Below are positions 2,617 through 16,147 of a stretch of DNA of 64,000 bases, one piece after another. A program made the position numbers and the translations under genes. The stretch lies in the NCBI GenBank assembly GCA_039815185.1, contig JBCBZT010000004.1, positions 182,022 through 246,021 of the forward strand, read 5' to 3'. Source of the DNA: Cyanobacteria bacterium P01_A01_bin.123. Its GTDB lineage: Bacteria > Cyanobacteriota > Cyanobacteriia > Phormidesmidales > Phormidesmidaceae. The stretch's first letter is position 1; the number at the start of each line of letters is the position of its first letter. The notes beneath the pieces were generated by a model. That model was not told the DNA's origin and did not search any database. It saw only the letters and a program-made list of their open reading frames with translations.

Positions 2617-3170
2617 TTATAACATTCTGAGTTTTGCAATGACCGGACGATGGTCAGACACGCCGGGAGGCGGTGTAATCACTTGATCAACGCTAATACT
2701 TTGACTGGTAAAGATGTGATCGATCGGCAATTTAAAGGGTAGCTTTAACCGATCAAGTCGAGACAACGGACGTGCCGAACTGCTATAAGACCAAGTCGGA
2801 TTTAGACCGTGGCCCAAATTCACACTGCGTAGTTTTGACCGACGCATAAAGTCCCGGAAATAAGGAGACCAAGAGGTGAGGTTAAAGTTGCCCATCATGA
2901 TTGTGGTGAGCTGCTGTTGCGCTGCATATGCTGCTAACGAAGCCATGGCCTGGTTTCGACTTATAAAGTTGTATTTAGAGACAGGTGCCAAGGGATGAGC
3001 AACCACAACTCGAACGCTTTTCCCTTGAACATCTACGATGGCAAAGCTGAGAACCAGAGGTAGCCTGCGCCTAAAAGTTCAAACAATCAAAATCGATACC
3101 ATTGACCTGAAGAAAAGCTGAGCCCCAATAAGATAATTGCAATTGGCCAAAGCAAAATACTCAGGAGCAT
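2617..3170 (-). pseudogene. Endonuclease/exonuclease/phosphatase (EEP) family pseudogene
   Basis: The C-terminal EEP motifs GNFNLTSWS, LPIDHIF and GVSDHRPV lie in 2617-3006. A membrane-type N-terminus from ATG 3170 (MLLSILLWPIAIILLGLSFSSGQWYRF*LFELLG) has an in-frame TGA at 3087-3089, is in a different frame, and the middle of the gene is missing. Confidence 0.75.
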
Positions 3171-4120: not shown

Positions 4121-4286
4121 ACATCAAGGAAAAGTAAACTTGCCCGGCACCCCTACAGGTAAAATTATGGATCTCGGGTACAGGCAAGATTGAGGGATTT
4201 AGTCTCATTTTTAGTAACCAGAGACAAGGGGAGAAATCTGGTTGCTAGGGTAATAATTGAGTTTCCCTGAGGAGGAGTTGTTCATA

Positions 4287-5408
4287 ATGCGCGTTCGTTA
4301 CTTAGGCTTGAGTCTCGTCAGTGTAGTAGCAGTGGCAGGTATCAATCTGCCCATCGTTCAAAGGGCGATCGCAGATATCGGCCCCATCCCCCCAATGGCC
4401 CAGCAATTACCCAATGATCCACCTGGAGATGAATCGTCCTCCAGCCCCTCTAATCTCCCTACCTTAGTACGCAACAGCTTGCGATTGCACATTGCTCAAA
4501 ATACTGGTGTCCCTTACTCGTTAGTGCAGGTTGTTAGCGCTACTGCCGAAATCTGGACAGATTCGTGTCTGGGGTTAGGTGGCCCAGCAGAATCTTGTTT
4601 GGCTGCACGCTATCCCGGTTGGCGAGTTGAACTCACTGATGGCAACCAAACCTGGATTTATCGCAGCGATCGCACCGGCAATATCCTCCGTCGAGAATCG
4701 CCACAAAATGAAGCGTCAGGCTTGCCGCCGGAAACCGCTCAACGGATTGTTGATACTGTAGCCAACGATCGAGGCCTGCTGCCGTCCCAAGTTGAGATTA
4801 TTGCTGCCGAATCCCGTACCTGGGATGGTTGCTTAGGCATTTATCCCGAAGCCAATACCATTTGCACCCAAATTGCGATCTCCGGTTGGCGCGTGATCGT
4901 AGCTACCCCAGATCAGGTGCAGGTTTATCACACCAACCAAGATGGCAGCAATAGTCGGCTCAACCCATTGCTGACCCAAGTGGGGGATGCTAGCATTGCG
5001 CCTCGATTTCTCACAGGCCCTTTGCCAACCACCTATGAAGCCCCACCCCAATCCGTGTTGACCATTATCACCAGTGGCGGAATTGCTGGGCGTATCTATA
5101 AGACAGTACTCTACAGCGATCGCTCAATAGTCGGCTTCGACATAATCGGCAATCAAATTAACACACCTGCGGATTTAGGCCGTTTATCATCCCAAGACTA
5201 CAACACCTTTTTACGTTTGCTTGAGACCCAACAGCTAAGAACCTTTAATGGCCTCCACTATCCTTCCCCCGAAGGTGCCGCCGATGATATTACGGTCACT
5301 CTAATCTCCGGCACCAATCAAGTCATTCAATATTCCGATATTGCGGTCAATCAACTCCCGTCTAGCCTGCAGCTCATACATCAAGGCTGGTTTGAACTGA
5401 TTAATTAG
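4287..5408 (+). CDS. Secreted hypothetical protein with two Cys-containing ~70-aa repeats
   Basis: GGAGGAG SD before ATG 4287; signal peptide; repeats WTDSCLGL...C....PGWRV and WDGCLGI...C....SGWRV. Confidence 0.85.
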   Translation: MRVRYLGLSLVSVVAVAGINLPIVQRAIADIGPIPPMAQQLPNDPPGDESSSSPSNLPTLVRNSLRLHIAQNTGVPYSLVQVVSATAEIWTDSCLGLGGPAESCLAARYPGWRVELTDGNQTWIYRSDRTGNILRRESPQNEASGLPPETAQRIVDTVANDRGLLPSQVEIIAAESRTWDGCLGIYPEANTICTQIAISGWRVIVATPDQVQVYHTNQDGSNSRLNPLLTQVGDASIAPRFLTGPLPTTYEAPPQSVLTIITSGGIAGRIYKTVLYSDRSIVGFDIIGNQINTPADLGRLSSQDYNTFLRLLETQQLRTFNGLHYPSPEGAADDITVTLISGTNQVIQYSDIAVNQLPSSLQLIHQGWFELIN

Positions 5409-7989
5409 GGTGATGATCTGCCCGGCTAACCAGATCCGCCAGCGATTCTTGCCGCCATAATAGGGCTGTTGCATCCTCAACAGGCAGAGGTTTGGCCCAA
5501 TAGTAACCTTGGCCAAACTCGCAATCCATCGACCGCAGCGCCTCGGCTTGCGCTGGCGTTTCGACCCCTTCTGCAATCAAATCCATACCCAATGTATGTC
5601 CGAGGGAAATAATGGTGCGGATGATTTCGTGGTCCTCTCGACTTTCGTCCATCCTTTGCACAAAAGATAGATCGATCTTGAGGATATCCACTGGAAATCG
5701 ACGCAGATGGTTAAGGGACGAATAGCCTGTCCCAAAATCATCCAGCCCCAACGTGCAGCCCAGGGATTTGAGTCGTAACATCAGATCGATCGCCACTTCA
5801 ACATTACCCATCACCATACTTTCGGTAATTTCGAGTTTGAGCTCTGCCCCTTCGATGCCAGAATCACGAATGCTTTGAGCCAAGTGACCAATCAATTCGG
5901 GTTGTTCAAACTGGCGTCCAGAAATGTTGATGCCCATCATTAAGAGCTGGCTTGGAAATTGAGTTTTCCATTGGCGGACTTGATGGCAAGCGGATTGGCA
6001 AATCCATTCGCCTAGGGGAATGATCAACCCAGTTTCTTCAGCCAAGGGAATAAACTGTTGAGGTGAAAGCAAACCCCGTTTAGGGTGATGCCATCGCACC
6101 AGTGCTTCAAACCCAACCACATTGCCACCATTGAGGGACATGATTGGCTGATAGTGCAACACAAATTCCTGGTTGTTGATACCCTGGCGCAGATCTTTTT
6201 CTAGGGTGAATCGATCCACAGACTCTTCTAACATGCCTGCGGCAAATACTTGATAATGGGTCTCACCCAGAGATTTAGCGCGATACATCGCCGTATGGGC
6301 ATCTCGCAGCAAATCTTCGGGCGTGTGTCGATATTCATGCTGGGTCAGCGCAATGCCGATGCTAGTGGTGATCACAATAGGCTGTTGATTAAGCCAGAAA
6401 GGATCTGCCAGCACCGTTTGCAGTTGGTCGGCGAGGGTCGTGAGGGTACCGTTATGACGTTGCTTACAGGCAAGCGCAAATTCGTCACCACTCACCCTAG
6501 CTAAACGAACGGAACCGGGTAAGAGGGTATGCAACCGATCGACGATCAGCAGTAGCAGGCGATCACCCATTTGCCGTCCAAGACTTTGATTGATCAGTTG
6601 AAACCGATTCAGCCCTAGAAACATAACCCCCAAAGCGGATGACGGCTTGTCATGGGGTCGATGGGCTAATGATCGTGTCAGAGAACGGACAAAAGCACTA
6701 CGATTGAGCAACCCTGTGAGGGTATCTCGAGTGGTGGCGTATCGCAGTCGGTGGGCCATGACAAAACCCAATCCCGCCACAAAGCCCAAGGCAGGCTCCG
6801 CCATAGGAATCCAAATCAGCTGGCTAAATGAAATCCATCCGATGCCGCCAATCAGGCCCAGACAGACTGTCCCGGCCACGCCAAAGGCTAAAGGATGGCG
6901 CAAACTCCACCCCAAACAACCGGCCACCGTTGCCCAACCCCAAAACCAGAGCCACTCTCCCCAACGCGGCCAAAATCGAAACAATCTCGGATTGTCAGAA
7001 GGAATATCGAGCAGTTGGCTGACCATCTGGGCATGGATGATTACCCCTGGCATCTGGAAGATATCTGATTGGGCAGAGCTATAGGGGGTATAGATCATGT
7101 CCTTTAAGCTGGGGGCAAAGGTGCCCACCAGCACGACTTTGTCGCGGATCCACTGAGGATTGACAGTGCCATTCAATAGTTGACTAAACGTGACGGTGTG
7201 GGCCACGTCCCGCCGAGTGCGATAGGGCAACATTACTTGATAGCCCCGAGTATCAGCCGTTTGATACCCCCCATCGGTGGCCTTTAGGGGAATCACGGGG
7301 CGATCGCCCATGAATAACGCATCTGGCGTTACGTCAAAGGTAATCCCCTCTGCTGCCAGATAGGCCAAACTCACCCGCAGTGCAAAGGAATAGTAATCTT
7401 GCTCTGCACCAGCGACAAACAGCAAATTGCGACGCAACACGCCATCTGCATCCAGTGTCAGGTTGTTAAAGCCCACTCGATCAGCCTCAACCCCGGACGG
7501 CGGCGAAATGTCATGGGCCACATTCGTAATGACAATCAGGTTGTCAGCATGAAGCTGGGTTGCAAAGGCGGTTTGACCTGGAGGGACGACCATATCCCGG
7601 TAAAGATCTAGCCCGATTACTCGCGGTTGGTGCATTTGCAACTGGCTTAACCCCTGGGCCAACTCTTGATCAGATAGCGGCCAACCATAACGTTGTAAAT
7701 CGTCTTCATTGATGGTGACAATCAACAACCGGGGATCTAAATCTGCATCGGGTTGCAGTTGAACAAATCGGTCAAAGATCTGAAGCTCTAGGGATTCCAA
7801 CACGCTGAACCGCTGCAGCCCCAAAAACAATCCAGTCAGAAGCGTACTTGAAACCAGCACTGAACGGCCTGCCACCCAAATGATGCGAGGTAGGGGGCTT
7901 TTGTAAACGCTCAACTGTTGGATTTGCCGCAAACGCGATCGCAGTTGAGTCACTAGAGCAGCGATTGGCAAAGACACTCCAGACTTCAT
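5401..7989 (-). CDS. CHASE2-GGDEF-EAL membrane protein (probable c-di-GMP phosphodiesterase)
   Basis: CHASE2 motifs (DPRLLIVTI.E.DL, PRVIGLDLYRD, D.DGVLRR, KVVLVG, MPGVIIHAQ), TM helices, GGDEF with SGDEF, intact EAL (GFEALVRW, LDDFGTGYSSL, AEGVET). Confidence 0.95.
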   Translation of the reverse strand: MKSGVSLPIAALVTQLRSRLRQIQQLSVYKSPLPRIIWVAGRSVLVSSTLLTGLFLGLQRFSVLESLELQIFDRFVQLQPDADLDPRLLIVTINEDDLQRYGWPLSDQELAQGLSQLQMHQPRVIGLDLYRDMVVPPGQTAFATQLHADNLIVITNVAHDISPPSGVEADRVGFNNLTLDADGVLRRNLLFVAGAEQDYYSFALRVSLAYLAAEGITFDVTPDALFMGDRPVIPLKATDGGYQTADTRGYQVMLPYRTRRDVAHTVTFSQLLNGTVNPQWIRDKVVLVGTFAPSLKDMIYTPYSSAQSDIFQMPGVIIHAQMVSQLLDIPSDNPRLFRFWPRWGEWLWFWGWATVAGCLGWSLRHPLAFGVAGTVCLGLIGGIGWISFSQLIWIPMAEPALGFVAGLGFVMAHRLRYATTRDTLTGLLNRSAFVRSLTRSLAHRPHDKPSSALGVMFLGLNRFQLINQSLGRQMGDRLLLLIVDRLHTLLPGSVRLARVSGDEFALACKQRHNGTLTTLADQLQTVLADPFWLNQQPIVITTSIGIALTQHEYRHTPEDLLRDAHTAMYRAKSLGETHYQVFAAGMLEESVDRFTLEKDLRQGINNQEFVLHYQPIMSLNGGNVVGFEALVRWHHPKRGLLSPQQFIPLAEETGLIIPLGEWICQSACHQVRQWKTQFPSQLLMMGINISGRQFEQPELIGHLAQSIRDSGIEGAELKLEITESMVMGNVEVAIDLMLRLKSLGCTLGLDDFGTGYSSLNHLRRFPVDILKIDLSFVQRMDESREDHEIIRTIISLGHTLGMDLIAEGVETPAQAEALRSMDCEFGQGYYWAKPLPVEDATALLWRQESLADLVSRADHHPN

Positions 7990-8032
7990 TCAAACAATAG
8001 TAATTATGACGTTCTCCCAGAATCTCATCTTT

Positions 8033-8179
8033 CTATCGGGTGCCGCCCCCAACCTGCCGCCCAGGGAAATTACCGCGATCTGAACTGCCACCCTCAGCCC
8101 AGGCAGGCATAGCCATTGCCCCCAAAACGACAAAGGTCAGTAGGCCTATGGATACCGTTGCTCGTTTTAGGGAAATCAT
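8033..8179 (-). CDS. Small secreted peptide precursor (48 aa) ending in a DUF928-like PGRxVGGGTR motif
   Basis: Manual translation gives MISLKRATVSIGLLTFVVLGAMAMPAWA-EGGSSDRGNFPGRQVGGGTR*. Purine-rich AAGAAGAGAG just upstream of the ATG; n/h/c signal-peptide regions with an A-W-A cleavage site; 43 bp upstream of the CHASE2 gene on the same strand. Confidence 0.8.
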   Translation of the reverse strand: MISLKRATVSIGLLTFVVLGAMAMPAWAEGGSSDRGNFPGRQVGGGTR

Positions 8180-8789
8180 GAATAGCTCTCTTCTTTACTT
8201 ATAAGCTCAGCAACAACGCTCAAAACATTTTGTTTGAAGATGGAGGTGTGTCTTCAGCTCAAGATCCCAAACTAACCTCTGACCCAGTGATGATTGAGGT
8301 TTGTTTCTTTAGGGATTTTTATTCCGTCATGTCTAGACTAGAGGGTATTCAACTGAAGAATAACCGTGATGACACCAGTATTGAGTTATACCTAATTTAA
8401 AGACTGCTAAGTTTATATATAGTTTTAGACAACACCACGACTTTGAAAGGATTAGCGCTGTGCTTACACAATCGAACCCGGGTTGTTAGGGATTTAACTG
8501 ATTCAGTATTTTGAGAGAGATTGGTATCATCTAACACATCTTAATGTGATAAAAATATAGGCTGAAATTACTTGGTTATTGGGCTGATAACAGCGCTCGA
8601 TTGAGTCATGAAGGGTGAGTGTTGCATGCTCGGGTCTGATCGACGGACAATTCTGAGAACCAGCAACAGACTCTGCTAATAGCTGCTGACCCTCTGCGCA
8701 AAAATTCTATCAATCAGCGTTCCTTCTGCGAAGTCTGGGACAACCGTATTATGATGACGAATGAGCAGATTTAAGTTTTGTAAATTATT

Positions 8790-9413: not shown

Positions 9414-9538
9414 AGCCAGCCTAGGCCGGGATTGGGCGTTTCTTTGTAGCCAAAACTTGGGGTCTTGTTAATAATCACAACTCATCCGGTAACGCTGGGT
9501 AAGACGGTGTTTTCTTGAATAGAGAGCAGGTTGTAACC

Positions 9539-12451
9539 ATGACACATCGTTTCATCCAAAGATTCGGGACTCGATTTGGGGCATTGCTGCTATTAGGACT
9601 GGCGATACCTACTGTGGGGCTGCTCCCAACATCGACAGCGATCGCCCAGGTAAGCACCGACCCCCATCAGCTGCTCCACGACGGCATTAACGCCCTCAAC
9701 CAAGGCAACTATCCCCTTGCGCTACAGCGGTTACAACTGTCTTTGAGTTTGTATCGGCGAGCAGGCGATCGCCTCTATGAAGGTGTTGTCTACAGTTGGC
9801 TGGGTTCGGTCTATGACGAGATGGGGCGCTATGACGACGCGATCGCGGCCCTAGAGCAAGCCTTAGCCATCAGCCAAGCAGTTGAAGATCGAGTCGGCGA
9901 GGGGGTAGCCCTTAATCAAATTGGATTAATTCATCAGCGACGGGGCAATGACGCCGAAGCGCTGGATGCCTACGAACAAGCGCTAGCCATTTTTCAAGAA
10001 ACCGCTGAGACAGAAGGCGAAGCTGCGACTTTGAATAACATCGCCAGCATTTATGATCGCCGTGGAGACTATGCTGACGCCCTTAATACGTACGAACAAG
10101 CCCTAGTGCGCTATCGCCAGTTGGGCAGACGTAGTAGCGAAGCAAATACGCTAAAAGGCATGGGCGTGGTGCACTACAACCAAGCTAACTATGGCCAAGC
10201 CCTAGATCTTTACCAACAGGCTTTGACAATTCAAACGGCGATCGGCGATCGGCGAGAAATAGCCAGCACCCTCAATAACATCGGTGCTGTCCACGCTGAT
10301 TTAGGCGATTATGCTGCCGCCTTCGAGGCTTACACCCACGCCCTAGAAGTGCGACAAGCCTTGGGCGATCGCGCCGGAACAGCGACTACTCTCAACAATA
10401 TTGCGCTACTACAAGCAGCTCAAGGTAACTATGCTGCCGCCCAGGAGGGCTATAACCAAAGTTTAGCCATTGCCCAAGACATGGGCGATCGCCATAGCGA
10501 AAGCATAGTCCTGACAAATTTAGGCAATTTGAGCACGACTCTCGGGCAGTTCGACCGTGCCCTGACCTATCATCAGCAAGCCTTGACCCTACGCCAGACC
10601 CTCGACGATCGCGTTGGTATTGGCAGCACCCTCAACAACATGGGGCGGGTCTACTACCAGCAAGGTCATTATGACGAGGCCCTCAGTGCCTATCGACAAA
10701 GTTTAGCGATTTCCCAAACGATTAACACGCCAGATCGAGAGGCGTCTACCCTGGTTAACATCGGGGCTGTTTACGACAACCTGGGCGACTTTGAGACGTC
10801 TTTGCAACACTATCAGGATGCCTTAGAGATCTTTCAAAATCTAGGTATGCCTGGGTTAGAGAGTGCAACATTAAACAATATTGGCTATGTCTACAGGTTG
10901 CAGGGGAATTATGACCAGGCTATTTCAACCTACGAGGCAGCCCTAGCAATTGCCCAAACCATCGGTGATCGCAGTGGCGCAGCGACGACCCTCAGCAATC
11001 TGGGCATTGTCCAACTATGGAGCCAAAACTTTGAGGCAGCTGAGGAGAATTTATTAGCCGCGATCGCAATCTTGACCAGTTTGCGTAGCCAGGATTTGAG
11101 CGATGACGCCAAAATTAGCCTGTTCGATACTCAAGCTGCTACCTATAAGGCGCTCCAGCAGCTCTATGTCGCCCAAAACCAACCCCAACGGGCACTGGAA
11201 ATTTCTGAACAGGGTCGGACTCGTGCTTTTGTAGATCTGTTGACAACCCGGTTAGACAGTGACTCAGAACAGACTGCCCCCACGATCGCTGCCTCAACTG
11301 CCCCTGACATTGAGTCTATCCGCCGCATCGCGGCCCAACATCAAGCCACCCTAGTGGAATACTCCTGGGTTGATCGCTGCACGCTCTACATTTGGGTAGT
11401 GCAACCTGACGGCACCGTCGATTTTCGCCAGGCAGGAGAGTTAGATGAAACGGTGCCCGTAAGTCAGGCAGTGGCCACTGCCTCGTCTCAAGCGCGCTCA
11501 GCCTGCGTGCGTCGAGGCGTTGGTGTAATTGCGGCTGAGGAACTTGAAAATGCTGACGACAGTGCCTTGCAGACCTTACATCAAATCTTGATCGACCCGA
11601 TCGCCGATTTGCTCCCGACCGATCCAGACGATCACGTCATCTTTATTCCCCATGAGGAACTGTTTTTGGTGCCGTTTCCTGCGCTTCAAAGTCCCTCGGG
11701 GCGTTACTTGATTGAGGACCACACCCTACTGACCGCCCCGTCGATTCAGGTACTCGATCTGACTGCTCAGCGCCAAGCGGCGATCGCCCAAGCCAGTTCT
11801 GTTCAACCCGCTGGAGCTAGGCCTTTAATTGTGGGTAATCCCACCATGCCTAGCCTTGAGTCACCCTTATCGTCTCGCGCAGAACCGCTAGCACCCCTGC
11901 CTGGAGCCGAAGCCGAAGCCAACGCGATCGCAGCCCTGCTGGATACCACCGCCATTACAGGCCAACAAGCTACGGAATCCTTCATCAAAGCACAGCTCGA
12001 AACAGCCCCGATTATCCATTTGGCTACCCATGGTCTCTTGGATTACGGGGTGACAGCAACCTCAGATGGGGTAACCATACCGGGCGCGATCGCCCTTGCC
12101 CCCAGTACCACTGAAGACGGTCTGCTCACCGCCCGCGAAATTCTGGGATTGTCTACCCAGGCAGATTTAGTCGTGCTGAGCGCTTGTGACACTGGCTTGG
12201 GGACGATTACGGGAGACGGTGTCGTGGGGCTAGCCCGCGCTTGGATTGCAGCCGGTACCCCCAGCCTTGTGGTGTCTCTGTGGTTAGTCCCCGATGCCCC
12301 TACCGCCATCCTGATGACCGAGTTTTATCGCCAGCAACAATCAGGCCTTGATAAGGCTCAAGCCTTACGTCAAGCCATGCTGCACACGATGGCTAGCAAT
12401 CCTGAACCCCGCGACTGGGCTGCGTTTACCCTCATTGGCGAGGCCCAATGA
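9539..12451 (+). CDS. Secreted TPR-repeat CHAT-domain (caspase/HetF-like) protease
   Basis: Signal peptide, about 12 TPRs (TLNNIG..Y...G.Y..AL..Y.QAL), CHAT dyad IIHLATHG / VVLSACDTG, C-terminal WAAFTLIG. Confidence 0.95.
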   Translation: MTHRFIQRFGTRFGALLLLGLAIPTVGLLPTSTAIAQVSTDPHQLLHDGINALNQGNYPLALQRLQLSLSLYRRAGDRLYEGVVYSWLGSVYDEMGRYDDAIAALEQALAISQAVEDRVGEGVALNQIGLIHQRRGNDAEALDAYEQALAIFQETAETEGEAATLNNIASIYDRRGDYADALNTYEQALVRYRQLGRRSSEANTLKGMGVVHYNQANYGQALDLYQQALTIQTAIGDRREIASTLNNIGAVHADLGDYAAAFEAYTHALEVRQALGDRAGTATTLNNIALLQAAQGNYAAAQEGYNQSLAIAQDMGDRHSESIVLTNLGNLSTTLGQFDRALTYHQQALTLRQTLDDRVGIGSTLNNMGRVYYQQGHYDEALSAYRQSLAISQTINTPDREASTLVNIGAVYDNLGDFETSLQHYQDALEIFQNLGMPGLESATLNNIGYVYRLQGNYDQAISTYEAALAIAQTIGDRSGAATTLSNLGIVQLWSQNFEAAEENLLAAIAILTSLRSQDLSDDAKISLFDTQAATYKALQQLYVAQNQPQRALEISEQGRTRAFVDLLTTRLDSDSEQTAPTIAASTAPDIESIRRIAAQHQATLVEYSWVDRCTLYIWVVQPDGTVDFRQAGELDETVPVSQAVATASSQARSACVRRGVGVIAAEELENADDSALQTLHQILIDPIADLLPTDPDDHVIFIPHEELFLVPFPALQSPSGRYLIEDHTLLTAPSIQVLDLTAQRQAAIAQASSVQPAGARPLIVGNPTMPSLESPLSSRAEPLAPLPGAEAEANAIAALLDTTAITGQQATESFIKAQLETAPIIHLATHGLLDYGVTATSDGVTIPGAIALAPSTTEDGLLTAREILGLSTQADLVVLSACDTGLGTITGDGVVGLARAWIAAGTPSLVVSLWLVPDAPTAILMTEFYRQQQSGLDKAQALRQAMLHTMASNPEPRDWAAFTLIGEAQ

Positions 12452-13292: not shown

Positions 13293-14225
13293 ATGTCAAT
13301 GCCCCGAATTTCTGCCATTATTTGTACGCACAATCGGGATGCTTATTTAGGTGCAGCCATTGATAGCCTGCTGAATCAAGATTGTGCTGACTATGAAGTC
13401 ATTGTGATTGACAATGCCTCCACTGATAAAACTCGTGCAGTGGTTGAAACCCGATTATCTGATCCACGGTTGACCTACATCTACGAGGCAACTTTGGGCC
13501 TGTCGGTGGCCCGCAATACGGGGGCAAACGCTGCAAAAGCAGATATTTTGGCCTATCTTGATGATGATGCTGAAGCCAGTCAGGGCTGGTTGTCAGCATT
13601 GCTGCAGGCTTATGATGAGAACGAAAAGCTCGCGATCGCTGGGGGAAAAGTTACCCTAATCTGGCCCCCTGGGACAACCTCTCCTTCCTGGCTATCGGTA
13701 GAGTTATCTGGAAGTTTAGGGGCCTATGATTTGGGTGATGAGGTAGTGTATATCCAAAAGCCAGGGTTAACCCCACGTGGGCTCAACTACTCCCTCCGAA
13801 GCAGCTTTTTGGAATCCGTTGGGGGATTTGATGCGAACTTGGGTCGAGTGGGCAAAAATCTATTGTCCAACGAAGAATTACATATGACCCAGTTAGCCTT
13901 AGAACAAGGTTGGCAAGTGGCCTATCTACCCAACGCCCTTGCTGCTCATAATGTCTCCCCTGCTCGCATGAAACGGTCTTGGCACTTAAGTCGCAGTTGG
14001 TGGCAAGGCATTAGTGAGTGCTACCGTGAACAACTTGCCGGACGCACTGGTGTAGGGCAACTGCGTCGGGGTGGAGAAAGAATGGTGCGGGGTCTCTATA
14101 AAACTGTCAAATATTTGAGAGACCCTGCTGAGTGCTTTGCTAACTTCGCCTATGCTTATGGTCAAGTTGGGTATCTGATTAGCGCTATTCGGGGCATGGT
14201 AATGCCTCCTGCCGCCACCGAGTAG
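13293..14225 (+). CDS. Glycosyltransferase family 2
   Basis: ISAIICTHNR, VIDNASTD, GLSVARN.G, YLDDD, GFD..LGR. Confidence 0.95.
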   Translation: MSMPRISAIICTHNRDAYLGAAIDSLLNQDCADYEVIVIDNASTDKTRAVVETRLSDPRLTYIYEATLGLSVARNTGANAAKADILAYLDDDAEASQGWLSALLQAYDENEKLAIAGGKVTLIWPPGTTSPSWLSVELSGSLGAYDLGDEVVYIQKPGLTPRGLNYSLRSSFLESVGGFDANLGRVGKNLLSNEELHMTQLALEQGWQVAYLPNALAAHNVSPARMKRSWHLSRSWWQGISECYREQLAGRTGVGQLRRGGERMVRGLYKTVKYLRDPAECFANFAYAYGQVGYLISAIRGMVMPPAATE

Positions 14226-14516
14226 TTTACAGGTGTCATCTGCTGGGTGGGTTCCAAAAACCTCAGAGTGGGCCAATTTAACTCATTGCGGTCTGTTATG
14301 CCCTGATCTTAGCGTCAACTGCATGTGAAATGGATCAACATGGTAATCAAAGTCCTGAAAAATCGAGATGACGAGATGACTTGTTCATGATTGCTTGAAT
14401 TTTTAGCTTATTTTTTGTCGAAACAAGCTTACTGACAGTGAAATTGGGCATGCTTAGGCCAGTCCTGATTTATGTGACCGCTGTTCGCCAGTCCATTGCC
14501 ATTTACCCTAACTGCT

Positions 14517-15479
14517 ATGACTGTGGTATCCAAAGTCCCCGTTTCCGTTCTAATCCCCGCCAAGAACGAGGAAGAAAATCTCCCCGCTTGCTTGGAGAGT
14601 GTCGCTAAAGCCGATGAGATTTTTGTCGTAGATTCCCAAAGTGACGATCGCTCGGTAGAAATCTCCGAAAACTTTGGGGCAAACGTAGAACAGTTTCATT
14701 TCAACGGACGCTGGCCTAAGAAAAAGAACTGGTCTCTAGAAAATTTGCCTTTCCGTAACGACTGGGTTTTGATCGTCGACTGTGACGAGCGGATTACACC
14801 TGAGCTTTGGGATGAAATTGAAGTTGCCATTCAAGATCCTGAGCACAGTGGCTATTATCTCAACCGACGCGTCTTTTTCCTCGGCAAATGGATTCGCTAC
14901 GGGGGCAAATATCCCGACTGGAATCTACGGCTGTTCCGCCACCGTCAGGGTCGCTACGAAAATCTCAACACTGAAGAAATTCGCAACACGGGCGATAACG
15001 AAGTCCATGAACACGTGGTAGTCGAGTCTGGTAAAGTAGGCTACCTCAAAGCAGACATGCTGCACATTGATTTCCGCGACATGTACCATTGGTTGGCCCG
15101 CCACAATCGCTATTCCAACTGGGAGGCTCGGGTTTACTACAACCTACTGACGGGCATGGCCGATGATGGGACTATCGGAGCCAACTTGTTTGGTGATTCG
15201 GTGCAGCGAAAGCGCTTTTTGAAAAAGATTTGGGTGCGGTTGCCGTTCAAACCGCTTTTGCGATTTATCTTGTTCTACTTTATTCGGTTGGGCTTTTTGG
15301 ACGGCCGGGCTGGGTATATTTATGGCCGATTAATCAGCCAGTATGAATATCAAATTGGCGTCAAGCTCTACGAACTGAAACAGTTTGGCGGTCATCTTAA
15401 TGTCAAAGCTGCAGCTGCTGCTCAGTCTGAAACGCCTGTGACACAAAAACCCCTGGCCCAAGCTCAACCAGACGCCTAG
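14517..15479 (+). CDS. Glycosyltransferase family 2
   Basis: VSVLIPAKNEE, VVDSQS.D, WVLIVDCDE, YPDWNLRLF, VHEH. Confidence 0.95.
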   Translation: MTVVSKVPVSVLIPAKNEEENLPACLESVAKADEIFVVDSQSDDRSVEISENFGANVEQFHFNGRWPKKKNWSLENLPFRNDWVLIVDCDERITPELWDEIEVAIQDPEHSGYYLNRRVFFLGKWIRYGGKYPDWNLRLFRHRQGRYENLNTEEIRNTGDNEVHEHVVVESGKVGYLKADMLHIDFRDMYHWLARHNRYSNWEARVYYNLLTGMADDGTIGANLFGDSVQRKRFLKKIWVRLPFKPLLRFILFYFIRLGFLDGRAGYIYGRLISQYEYQIGVKLYELKQFGGHLNVKAAAAAQSETPVTQKPLAQAQPDA

Positions 15480-15496
15480 GCACCCCATTAGCATAT

Positions 15497-16147
15497 ATGG
15501 AATCTCCCTTGTCCCAATCTGACACCGATCGGGCCGTTTCGACCACGGCAGAATCCGATTGGGGAGCTCCTCCTCTGGTGGATCTGAGACAATACGATCA
15601 GTCTTGGTATAATCCAGGGCGTCCCCGCTGGGTAATTTTGCTGTGGTGGTTGGTTCAAGCAATCGCATTTCCGTTGACCCTCCATGCCCACCATGCTCCT
15701 CGCCGTGCCTTACTTAAGCTGTTTGGGGCGAAAGTTGGCAAGGGGGTGATTATCCGTCCTACAGCGCGATTTACCTACCCGTGGAATGTGGAAATTGGCG
15801 ACTACAGTTGGGTGGGGGATGATGTAGTGTTCTACAGCTTAGATAAGATCCGGATAGGTTGTCACTGTGTTATTTCCCAAGAGACCTACCTGTGCACAGG
15901 GAGTCATGATGCTAGTGACCCCGCTTTTGGCCTCGTGACCGGCCCCATCACGATTGAAAATGGCGTGTGGATCGCCACTGATTGCTTCATCGGCCTCGAT
16001 GTACGCATTGGTGCTAATGCCCTAGTGGGGGCCCGCAGCAGTGTGTTTAATGATTTACCACCGCTGCAAATTTGTCTGGGCTCACCCTGTCGCCCGAAGC
16101 GGCTACGCACGGTTGAAACCTCTAGGGTGCTCAAAGATCAGGTTTAA
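15497..16147 (+). CDS. hpsU: WcaF/HpsU-like polysaccharide acetyltransferase (hexapeptide repeat)
   Basis: VDLRQYDQSWY..GRP.W.ILLWWLVQAIAFPLT N-terminus and LCTGSHD, as recalled for cyanobacterial HpsU/WcaF proteins. Confidence 0.75.
   Translation: MESPLSQSDTDRAVSTTAESDWGAPPLVDLRQYDQSWYNPGRPRWVILLWWLVQAIAFPLTLHAHHAPRRALLKLFGAKVGKGVIIRPTARFTYPWNVEIGDYSWVGDDVVFYSLDKIRIGCHCVISQETYLCTGSHDASDPAFGLVTGPITIENGVWIATDCFIGLDVRIGANALVGARSSVFNDLPPLQICLGSPCRPKRLRTVETSRVLKDQV

Follow-up and report, generated by a model that had tools for sequence, protein, structure and literature searches.

Does the 48-codon open reading frame (ORF) that precedes a CHASE2-GGDEF-EAL receptor gene in Cyanobacteria bacterium P01_A01_bin.123 encode a peptide signal for that receptor? 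CHASE2 domains are widespread as extracellular sensors, their ligands are stated to be unknown (PMC10581220), and the peptide is a concrete candidate ligand. The locus was analysed within a 64,000-nucleotide stretch of contig JBCBZT010000004.1, referred to here as the window (Table 1).

Table 1. Features of the peptide-receptor locus, in window coordinates.
Feature	Position	Strand	Description
Membrane receptor, 862 aa	5401..7989	-	CHASE2 (53-357), GGDEF (420-576), EAL (598-834)
Spacer, 43 bp, peptide ORF to receptor gene	7990..8032	-	No terminator-like site
Peptide gene	8033..8179	-	48 codons: predicted signal peptide and 20-residue mature peptide, C-terminus GGGTR; orthologous to DUF928 N-terminus
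Conserved motif F-P-G-R-x-x-G-G-G-T-R	8036..8068	-	Residues 38-48; from N-terminus alignment with orthologues
Predicted Sec signal peptide	8096..8179	-	Residues 1-28, cut after A-W-A; by inspection and conserved Ala
Purine-rich tract, SD-like	8187..8197	-	5' of the start codon; by sequence inspection
Predicted exported TPR-CHAT protease	9515..12451	+	His and Cys motifs; divergent, 1.3 kb from the peptide ORF

The peptide ORF and the adjacent receptor

An earlier note had described a minus-strand ORF that stops (TAG) immediately after its GGGTR codons, 43 bp from the co-oriented receptor gene, and these coordinates were reproduced, with the ORF starting at an ATG at 8179 and the receptor at an ATG at 7989. 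The purine tract AAAGAAGAGAG ends 7 nt 5' of the ORF start codon. The export signal claimed in the same note also held up as a prediction: by inspection the N-terminus is Sec-signal-like (K5/R6, then a hydrophobic stretch at 7-24 and A-W-A at 26-28), and among 28 orthologous N-termini in the alignment at least 90% keep the Ala that precedes this cut site. A whole-genome scan, with a pattern composed after two of its three ORFs were already known, found three short, signal-like, motif-bearing ORFs compared with 0.16 expected in shuffled DNA. Assembly error was ruled out, since single contigs from two other studies (X5 and X8) cross the peptide-receptor junction without an indel in the ORF. On sequence grounds we conclude that the ORF is genuine, more than a chance occurrence and no assembly artefact. 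Public data contain it as a called protein (P0002, 98%), and this conspecific copy was the only one returned by a single-sequence search, so that profile searches were required. A sigma-70 scan gave three sites compared with 1.3 +/- 1.1 expected and was not used as evidence.

Cyclase activity of the receptor was judged by a GG(D/E)EF site together with the first-strand metal Asp (alignment consensus LDRF...GGDEF), which we take to be the consensus of active diguanylate cyclases. The receptor GGDEF domain is degenerate, with SGDEF at the site and the first-strand Asp lost (LGLNRF), and the site pattern was likewise unmatched in 18 of 20 orthologous loci. The EAL, DDFGTG, EGVE and QGY motifs, presumably the consensus of EAL phosphodiesterases, are all intact (Pfam EAL, 268.6 bits). 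Because the GGDEF domain is degenerate and the EAL domain intact, phosphodiesterase activity is more likely for the receptor than cyclase activity, and it probably degrades c-di-GMP. Asn176 of the receptor replaces an Asp found in 114 of 114 homologues (D176N). The CHASE2 domain was modelled with a pLDDT of 88, and Foldseek returned nothing for the model at E<=0.001 (best Z of 5.1 in a wide search), so that no pocket could be transferred from a known structure; a PDB sequence search gave no match for CHASE2 or DUF928.

Descent from DUF928 and the wider peptide family

All of the nine best-scoring receptor relatives class-wide (56-64% identity) have a full, co-oriented DUF928 gene abutting the receptor gene, and in the receptor tree the window receptor is nested among these nine (SH-aLRT/UFboot 92.7/74), outside a sister clade (100/100). 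When the window was searched by tblastn with full DUF928 relatives, the first 46 residues alone were matched (43% identity, E 6e-7) with no trace of the DUF928 body, the window having 43 bp where the relatives have ~550 bp, and reading through the stop codon revealed no DUF928-like sequence. Alignment of the peptide with 27 DUF928 N-termini (31-42% identity) bore out the previously proposed link to the DUF928 motif, with six invariant motif columns and the P39 region; Gln42 of the peptide corresponds to Arg in 27 of 27 aligned orthologues (R42Q). The peptide gene thus resembles DUF928 (PF06051) in its predicted signal peptide, its PGRRxGGG[TS]R motif (PGRRxGGGTR) and its place directly upstream of this receptor clade, and differs in having neither the folded body of ~180 residues nor a Pfam match: no family was found at E<=0.1, so the peptide falls below the PF06051 cut-off, compared with 169-171 bits for the orthologous full-length proteins. 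Aligning the DNA around the deletion junction with that of relatives gave no usable information. Since full-length DUF928 occupies the same position in the relatives, these comparisons indicate that the peptide gene arose by truncation, as what is left of the N-terminal end of a DUF928 gene that lost its body, and is not an independent gene; the earlier note was right that the motif stands here without a DUF928 body, but the full-length gene in relatives is an outcome that it had itself named as counting against its reading. In a model of full-length DUF928, the body is predicted to be Ig-like and helical with the motif as an unfolded arm in front, the motif residues having a pLDDT of 42-45 though P, R, G and R are invariant in 37 rows. 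The PF06051 model itself begins at the GGGTR of the motif.

Judging from sequence comparison, short, predicted exported proteins with this motif are a widespread family, and truncation of this kind seems to have given a functional form more than once, not junk. As the earlier note anticipated, homologous short ORFs stop right after G[GA]GTR: of the 38 members sharing <50% identity with any seed, 12 have the motif Arg as their last residue, every other tail length being represented by at most two. The test of codon-level conservation that it had called for was also positive, in that pairwise comparisons within three peptide-only families indicate purifying selection on the motif codons (462, 268 and 459 synonymous vs 113, 45 and 64 amino-acid changes) and gave the reverse proportions in the tails (60 vs 409, 46 vs 251 and 164 vs 224, respectively). 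The motif is also at the very end of two full DUF928 proteins and one COP23 protein. Many family members have a tail after the motif or His instead of the final Arg, indicating that a free C-terminal Arg is not universally required. The short motif ORFs tested had no Pfam or NCBIfam match, the best Atlas score was 0.77 (a lead at most), and no description of these motif peptides was found in a library of mostly open-access papers. Two broader scans were set aside. When all prokaryote genomes were scanned for the motif followed by a stop, GC-rich chance matches dominated among the matches listed (80), of which four cyanobacterial loci were examined; with looser patterns applied across the family, 61 and 10 matches were obtained vs ~24 and ~17 control matches by eye, and the loci examined were mostly off-frame chance matches, some inside CHASE2 genes.

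Candidate partners of the peptide

All three short motif ORFs found in this genome lie <0.5 kb from a CHASE2 gene (for a distance of 1 kb the background is 0.37%), and class-wide 18 of 53 short motif genes have CHASE2 within 5 kb (background 1.7%, from this genome), 11 of these 18 being one orthologous family. The expected enrichment beside CHASE2 genes was therefore present at both scales. Among related receptor loci, 12 of 39 have a short motif ORF within ~0.5 kb, ten of them upstream on the same strand; in another conserved peptide family 13 of 16 members have no system gene nearby, and the single locus obtained when metagenomes were scanned with the receptor lacked CHASE2. The co-orientation, the 43-bp gap and the lack of a terminator-like site suggest that peptide and receptor are probably made together. 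Complex prediction, which the earlier note had suggested, gave weak support for binding of the peptide to its cognate CHASE2 domain (0.46 vs 0.04 for the best control), with at least 62% of contacts in common between runs and a partner pLDDT of at least 52. In the reference sets, 116 of 157 solved pairs and 2 of 215 mismatched pairs attained the same mark, and the pairs reaching it at <=0.60 comprised 18 solved and both mismatched ones.

These results partly support the interpretation of the peptide as a CHASE2 ligand, and we propose, with the balance about even, that it represents the DUF928 arm in an already cut form and regulates the neighboring CHASE2 phosphodiesterase. Comparison with relatives shows that the ancestral operon encoded an exported DUF928 protein together with the CHASE2-GGDEF-EAL receptor, and in many cases an exported CHAT protease as well. 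The motif arm would be the part of DUF928 that binds CHASE2, and in the full-length protein it would be masked or released, probably through cleavage by the CHAT protease on the C-terminal side of the final Arg. The present lineage would have lost the body, with a stop placed exactly after that Arg, and, with the operon CHAT absent from the locus, the gene would encode the finished product directly; the operon CHAT is missing from 10 of 20 DUF928 operons examined, making its absence here weak evidence. Signal peptidase would then free the 20-residue peptide, with its C-terminal Arg, into the periplasm, where it may bind the receptor, presumably co-transcribed with it, at the acidic CHASE2 domain and set the receptor's EAL activity, and hence local c-di-GMP, in either direction. 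If a peptide controls a c-di-GMP enzyme in this way, the finding would be relevant to how filamentous cyanobacteria move and form biofilms and mats, and the natural minimal allele reduces the candidate ligand to a synthesizable 20-residue peptide for one purified domain. It also predicts the position of the CHAT-protease cut in DUF928 and would give DUF928 a first function.

More tentatively, G[GA]G[TS]R may be the ligand class of cyanobacterial CHASE2 sensors in general, comprising DUF928 pro-forms (some with several motif copies) freed by exported CHAT proteases and many repeatedly arisen pre-cut peptides, in which case this gene would be a naturally pre-cut allele pointing to the cleavage site, and R42Q/D176N would form a private ligand-receptor pair. 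If so, filamentous cyanobacteria would have a large unrecognized peptide-signal network feeding into c-di-GMP, cyclases and kinases. General covariation of Arg42 and Asp176 was unsupported over 57 aligned pairs (45 R/D, 11 non-R/D and 1 non-R/N), since the 11 other pairs without Arg keep Asp.

It is unlikely that the peptide is functional but regulates instead the exported TPR-CHAT protease, a TpsA/TpsB pair or a different CHASE2 protein in trans. Peptides elsewhere that stop at the Arg (n=8, five with full flanks) have TpsA/TpsB/CHAT genes nearby in four cases (background 4.3%) and CHASE2 within 5 kb in none, and further such cases stand at the ends of TpsA-TpsB or TpsA-CHAT operons (L221, L222 and L225). 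TPR arrays often bind free C-termini, a TPR-CHAT gene lies near the peptide ORF, and the genome has 15 CHASE2 matches. Nevertheless, the peptide gene keeps its ancestral place in the receptor operon, the peptides of this genome all adjoin CHASE2 genes, and the models of the complex with the cognate CHASE2 domain give that pairing weak support. The window TPR-CHAT is a distant paralogue of the CHAT from the relatives' operon, and its tie to the peptide-receptor system is that of a candidate.

Also improbable is an inert remnant, in which this lineage recently lost the DUF928 body and the remaining 48 codons have no function. The full-length gene in all nine closest relatives fits such a loss, as do codon usage indistinguishable from non-coding frames and the changes R42Q and D176N, which may represent decay at otherwise invariant positions. 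Moreover, a stop-at-Arg peptide directly upstream of this receptor was seen in this species only, at none of 39 further pattern loci in the family (one already known beforehand). Against it, start, purine tract, signal and motif are all intact while ~550 bp of body is gone without trace, the stop coincides with the end point of the 12 independent short members, and in other clades peptide-only genes are maintained under selection. In two other strains the ORF is free of indels, the two substitutions listed for X5 are synonymous, and P0002 has one conservative change (A26V); a 1-nt indel is found in the purine tract (8197) in two other strains. The peptide gene is thus probably not junk.

The least probable alternative is a fixed accessory subunit, a small-protein modulator that is membrane-retained or permanently bound and locks the co-expressed receptor in one state without signaling, for which the operon-like arrangement, the abolition by body loss of any regulated release step and family members with a poor or absent cleavage site (one conserved form lacking a hydrophobic signal) can be cited, whereas the clear A-x-A site is kept in orthologues and the 35 of 53 family genes without CHASE2 within 5 kb are compatible with a diffusible product.

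Relation to known systems

The proposed CHASE2 ligand can be set beside several described systems. The single paper retrieved that names DUF928 notes a CHASE2 neighbor in Nostoc and a link to acid stress (PMC5587647). PatX/PatP of Nostoc PCC 7120 derives likewise from a small precursor whose short Gly/Arg motif has a final Arg and which has a Sec signal and extracytosolic processing, both of them predictions for the window peptide, and PatX carries HRGTGR and inhibits cytoplasmic HetR (PMC12756182). In contrast, the window peptide lacks RG(S/T)GR, ends in GGGTR, would not have to be trimmed at its C-terminus and is linked to a membrane sensor; another ORF of the genome, with RGSGR repeats, agrees with the earlier distinction from PatX.

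Dgc2 of Leptolyngbya boryana, a CHASE2 c-di-GMP enzyme that suppresses motility and biofilm, is CHASE2-PAS-GGDEF with an active cyclase site, whereas the window receptor is CHASE2-degenerate GGDEF-EAL; no partner peptide for Dgc2 appears in the portion available (PMC10581220). In Sinorhizobium meliloti, the CHASE2 enzymes CyaK, CyaD1 and CyaD2 answer a basic unfolded protein, ribosomal uL2, which enters via the outer-membrane receptor NsrA (PMC7529298; PMC13001267). That signal is foreign and acts on CHASE2 perhaps indirectly, whereas the window candidate is self-encoded. The motif resembles a stretch of uL2, a likeness set aside as evidence because both uL2 halves are active in the Sinorhizobium assay (PMC7529298). 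Finally, MtxA of magnetotactic bacteria (PDB 4Z29) is a periplasmic Ig-like and TPR protein encoded before a CHASE2 cyclase, and its mutant had no phenotype (PMC4439547). The DUF928 body model resembles MtxA (Foldseek TMq 0.50, E 1.2e-3), a likeness limited to the portion now missing from the window gene.

The peptide ORF and its relation to DUF928

The short signal-like ORF reported in the earlier note was re-read in the sequence as claimed: a purine tract precedes its ATG, its N-terminus is signal-like, and a 43-bp spacer separates it from the 862-aa CHASE2-GGDEF-EAL gene in the same orientation. Contigs of two other studies cover this junction in one piece (X5, 81 differences from the window in 2,501 bases; X8, 27 in 1,384). 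Among the differences listed, the only two indels lie outside the peptide ORF and the two substitutions within it are third-position synonymous; a called conspecific protein differs from the peptide by the single change A26V. The peptide ORF is a real feature, with no match in Pfam or NCBIfam, and by family definition is not a DUF928 member.

Coordinates of the features discussed (G000, source genome; C, contig; L, locus read; otherwise window positions)
Feature	Coordinates	Strand	Description
Peptide ORF	8179-8033	(-)	48 codons, ATG start, TAG directly after GGGTR
Receptor	5401..7989	(-)	CHASE2-GGDEF-EAL gene
383-aa exported protein	4257-5408	(+)	Internal repeat; 8-bp overlap with receptor stop
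Endonuclease/exonuclease/phosphatase piece	2617-3006	(-)	129-codon C-terminal piece of the domain (Pfam positions 121-225)
Glycosyltransferase-like genes	13293-16147	(+)	With HpsU (NF038307)
Polysaccharide cluster	~30700-63600	(+)	Long; HepC-type and Wzc-like genes
45-aa exported motif ORF	L215:5028-5165 (G000:C29)		Ends GGSR-stop; a CHASE2 gene, itself behind a response regulator, is convergent with it
68-aa exported ORF	L216:3846-4052 (G000:C60)		GAGTR plus 9 residues; divergent from second CHASE2-GGDEF-EAL gene
PatX-like exported ORF	G000:C26:75507-75992	(-)	Five RGSGR copies; possible multi-core precursor
Presumed uL2-like frame	G000:C13:104556-105422		288 codons; R-x-x-G-G-G-H-x-R stretch, similar to the motif's His variant

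A full DUF928 gene lies directly upstream of the receptor in 14 of 29 related loci of the same family, the ten best included, and in all nine of the best class-wide receptor relatives (56-64% identity). The N-termini of these proteins are 31-42% identical to the entire peptide, with the motif nearly invariant, and 26 of 27 run on for 174-207 residues past the peptide-equivalent part, the remaining one ending at its locus edge. Searching the window by tblastn matched the first 46 residues only and found no DUF928 body; at other places the source genome has three intact DUF928 genes. In a tree of 51 sensor regions (one duplicate row excluded), the window receptor grouped with receptors linked to DUF928 (92.7/74) and fell outside a sister clade (100/100); two other runs gave the same sister clade, with support for the DUF928 clade varying between runs. 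Because DUF928-linked receptors occur in relatives and, in the tree, both around the window receptor and among earlier branches, these comparisons indicate that the peptide ORF is a cut-down DUF928 and the short form derived. The motif without a DUF928 body described in the earlier note holds for the window, but not for relatives with the full-length gene at the same place, an arrangement that the note had tied to truncation.

In an orthologous DUF928 model the motif is unfolded (pLDDT 42-45) despite four invariant residues. The body is predicted as an Ig-like sandwich plus helices and resembles MtxA. In aligned DUF928 rows, Gly directly follows the motif Arg in 31 of 37 and a Cys lies at most 9 residues past it in 31 of 37. 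These partly modelled features are what a short motif for binding or cleavage would show. Of 20 DUF928-bearing loci hand-picked for wider flanks, 10 also contain an exported CHAT protease, orthologous among them; its best matches in the source genome (35-38% identity) are located elsewhere.

The receptor and its modelled contact with the peptide

Judged by the GGDEF and EAL consensus motifs, the receptor has intact EAL motifs but a degenerate GGDEF site (LGLNRF, SGDEF), so its output is most likely c-di-GMP breakdown. The CHASE2 domain has 13 conserved acidic versus 7 conserved basic columns.

As the earlier note had proposed, the peptide (residues 19-48 of the ORF) was modelled with the CHASE2 domain, and the complex scored 0.46 against 0.04 for the best control, with at least 62% of contacts in common between runs and partner pLDDT of at least 52. 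Of the solved pairs, 116 of 157 came up to this mark, as did 2 of 215 mismatched ones; with a score of 0.60 or below, only 18 solved pairs did so, plus both mismatches. Since sequence and fold searches of the PDB gave no relative of CHASE2, a score that merely reproduces a known structure is less likely. The prediction weakly backs a peptide-CHASE2 contact.

Recurrence, linkage and proposed mechanism

Of 401 genomes searched with a motif-plus-stop-or-Trp pattern, 29 had matches, 34 in total against 3 control matches; several of the 34 are stand-alone signal-peptide ORFs. A profile from 16 such ORFs retrieved 75 cluster representatives and 62 short proteins, all 62 with the motif and 15 with it terminal; the motif was the C-terminal end in 21 of 59 short motif-bearing representatives. 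Homologous short ORFs stopping right at the motif Arg, which the earlier note had expected, do exist: the motif was the end in 12 of 38 short members less than 50% identical to any seed, every other tail length accounting for at most 2. Two or three copies of the motif occur in some DUF928 and short proteins (P0084, P0087, P0095, P0073, P0119), a number of them motif-terminal, which makes them look like polyprotein precursors. Two DUF928 proteins end on the motif, and so does a COP23-domain protein.

The most likely reading, to which we give about half our belief, is that the ORF encodes a finished DUF928 arm that would be exported, trimmed to 20 residues with Arg as the last, and act on the neighbouring CHASE2 phosphodiesterase. 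In relatives, the operon CHAT would cut full-length DUF928 after the motif Arg, as we infer from gene order, stop positions and the Arg specificity that certain related proteases of clan CD show.

A scan of the source genome found three short ORFs that are signal-like and bear the motif, where 0.16 were expected; its pattern was composed when two of them were already known, and position was not used. All three have a CHASE2 gene within 0.5 kb (stretches no more than 1 kb from such a gene make up 0.37% of the genome), and two stop at the Arg. The 68-aa ORF is conserved in a same-genus genome (L016 of G001). Among 39 related receptor loci scanned, 12 have a short ORF with the motif at a distance of up to about 0.5 kb; nine of these ORFs are of GGGTH type, upstream and on the receptor strand. 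In a census, 58 regions surrounding short hits of the profile were examined and 53 kept (three were DUF928 fragments, one lacked a short ORF and one was missed by the filter); this placed CHASE2 within 5 kb in 18, against a 1.7% background, 11 of the 18 belonging to one family. The eight stop-at-Arg peptides in the census have TpsA, TpsB or CHAT nearby in four cases and nothing nearby in four. A target among TPR-CHAT proteins, TpsA/TpsB or other CHASE2 proteins is an unlikely alternative.

That the ORF is an inert remnant is about as unlikely. In three peptide-only families, with the final five motif residues as anchor and pairs not independent, synonymous versus amino-acid pairwise differences were 462 vs 113, 268 vs 45 and 459 vs 64 in motif codons, and 60 vs 409, 46 vs 251 and 164 vs 224 in tails. 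Of 69 sensor columns with strong conservation, the receptor deviates in only 3, including D176N (unique among 115 rows), and the peptide carries R42Q (unique among 28); the two changes may match each other or may both be decay, and R42/D176 covariation was not seen in other peptide-receptor pairs. The peptide ORF is probably functional; a fixed accessory subunit is the least likely reading. The locus contributes a clean orthologous case of a DUF928 shortened precisely to where the motif ends. It also brings the tests on stop positions and on codons, and a contact with the cognate sensor that was modelled.

A conserved exported family of ~76 residues (L279-L284, L288, L291, L293, L332-L334) has a conserved tail of 38 residues after the motif, and CHASE2 adjoins in 2 of 16. 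An Arg-rich ORF of 41 residues, conserved within one genus of the family (L358, L359, L360, L361, L363, L055, L395), has the motif then stop and lacks a hydrophobic signal; six wider regions contain neither CHASE2 nor a CHAT or Tps gene. This ORF is either a form without leader or a peptide unrelated to the others.

Related systems and neighbouring genes

The frame on contig C13 presumably encodes ribosomal protein uL2. According to the consulted parts of PMC7529298 and PMC13001267, CHASE2 cyclases of Sinorhizobium react to a protein signal via NsrA, through which uL2 activates one of them. The consulted part of PMC10581220 terms CHASE2 ligands unknown, and that of PMC5587647 mentions DUF928. 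Comparison with the consulted part of PMC12756182 led us to reject PatX identity for the peptide despite its PatX-like build; our literature search, largely of main texts outside subscription papers, found no description of these peptides.

In the window, the 383-aa protein belongs to unnamed cyanobacterial clusters (Atlas 0.96), with no Pfam family above cut-off. The endonuclease/exonuclease/phosphatase piece is possibly a split or truncated gene, and the glycosyltransferase-like genes and polysaccharide cluster are plausible c-di-GMP outputs.
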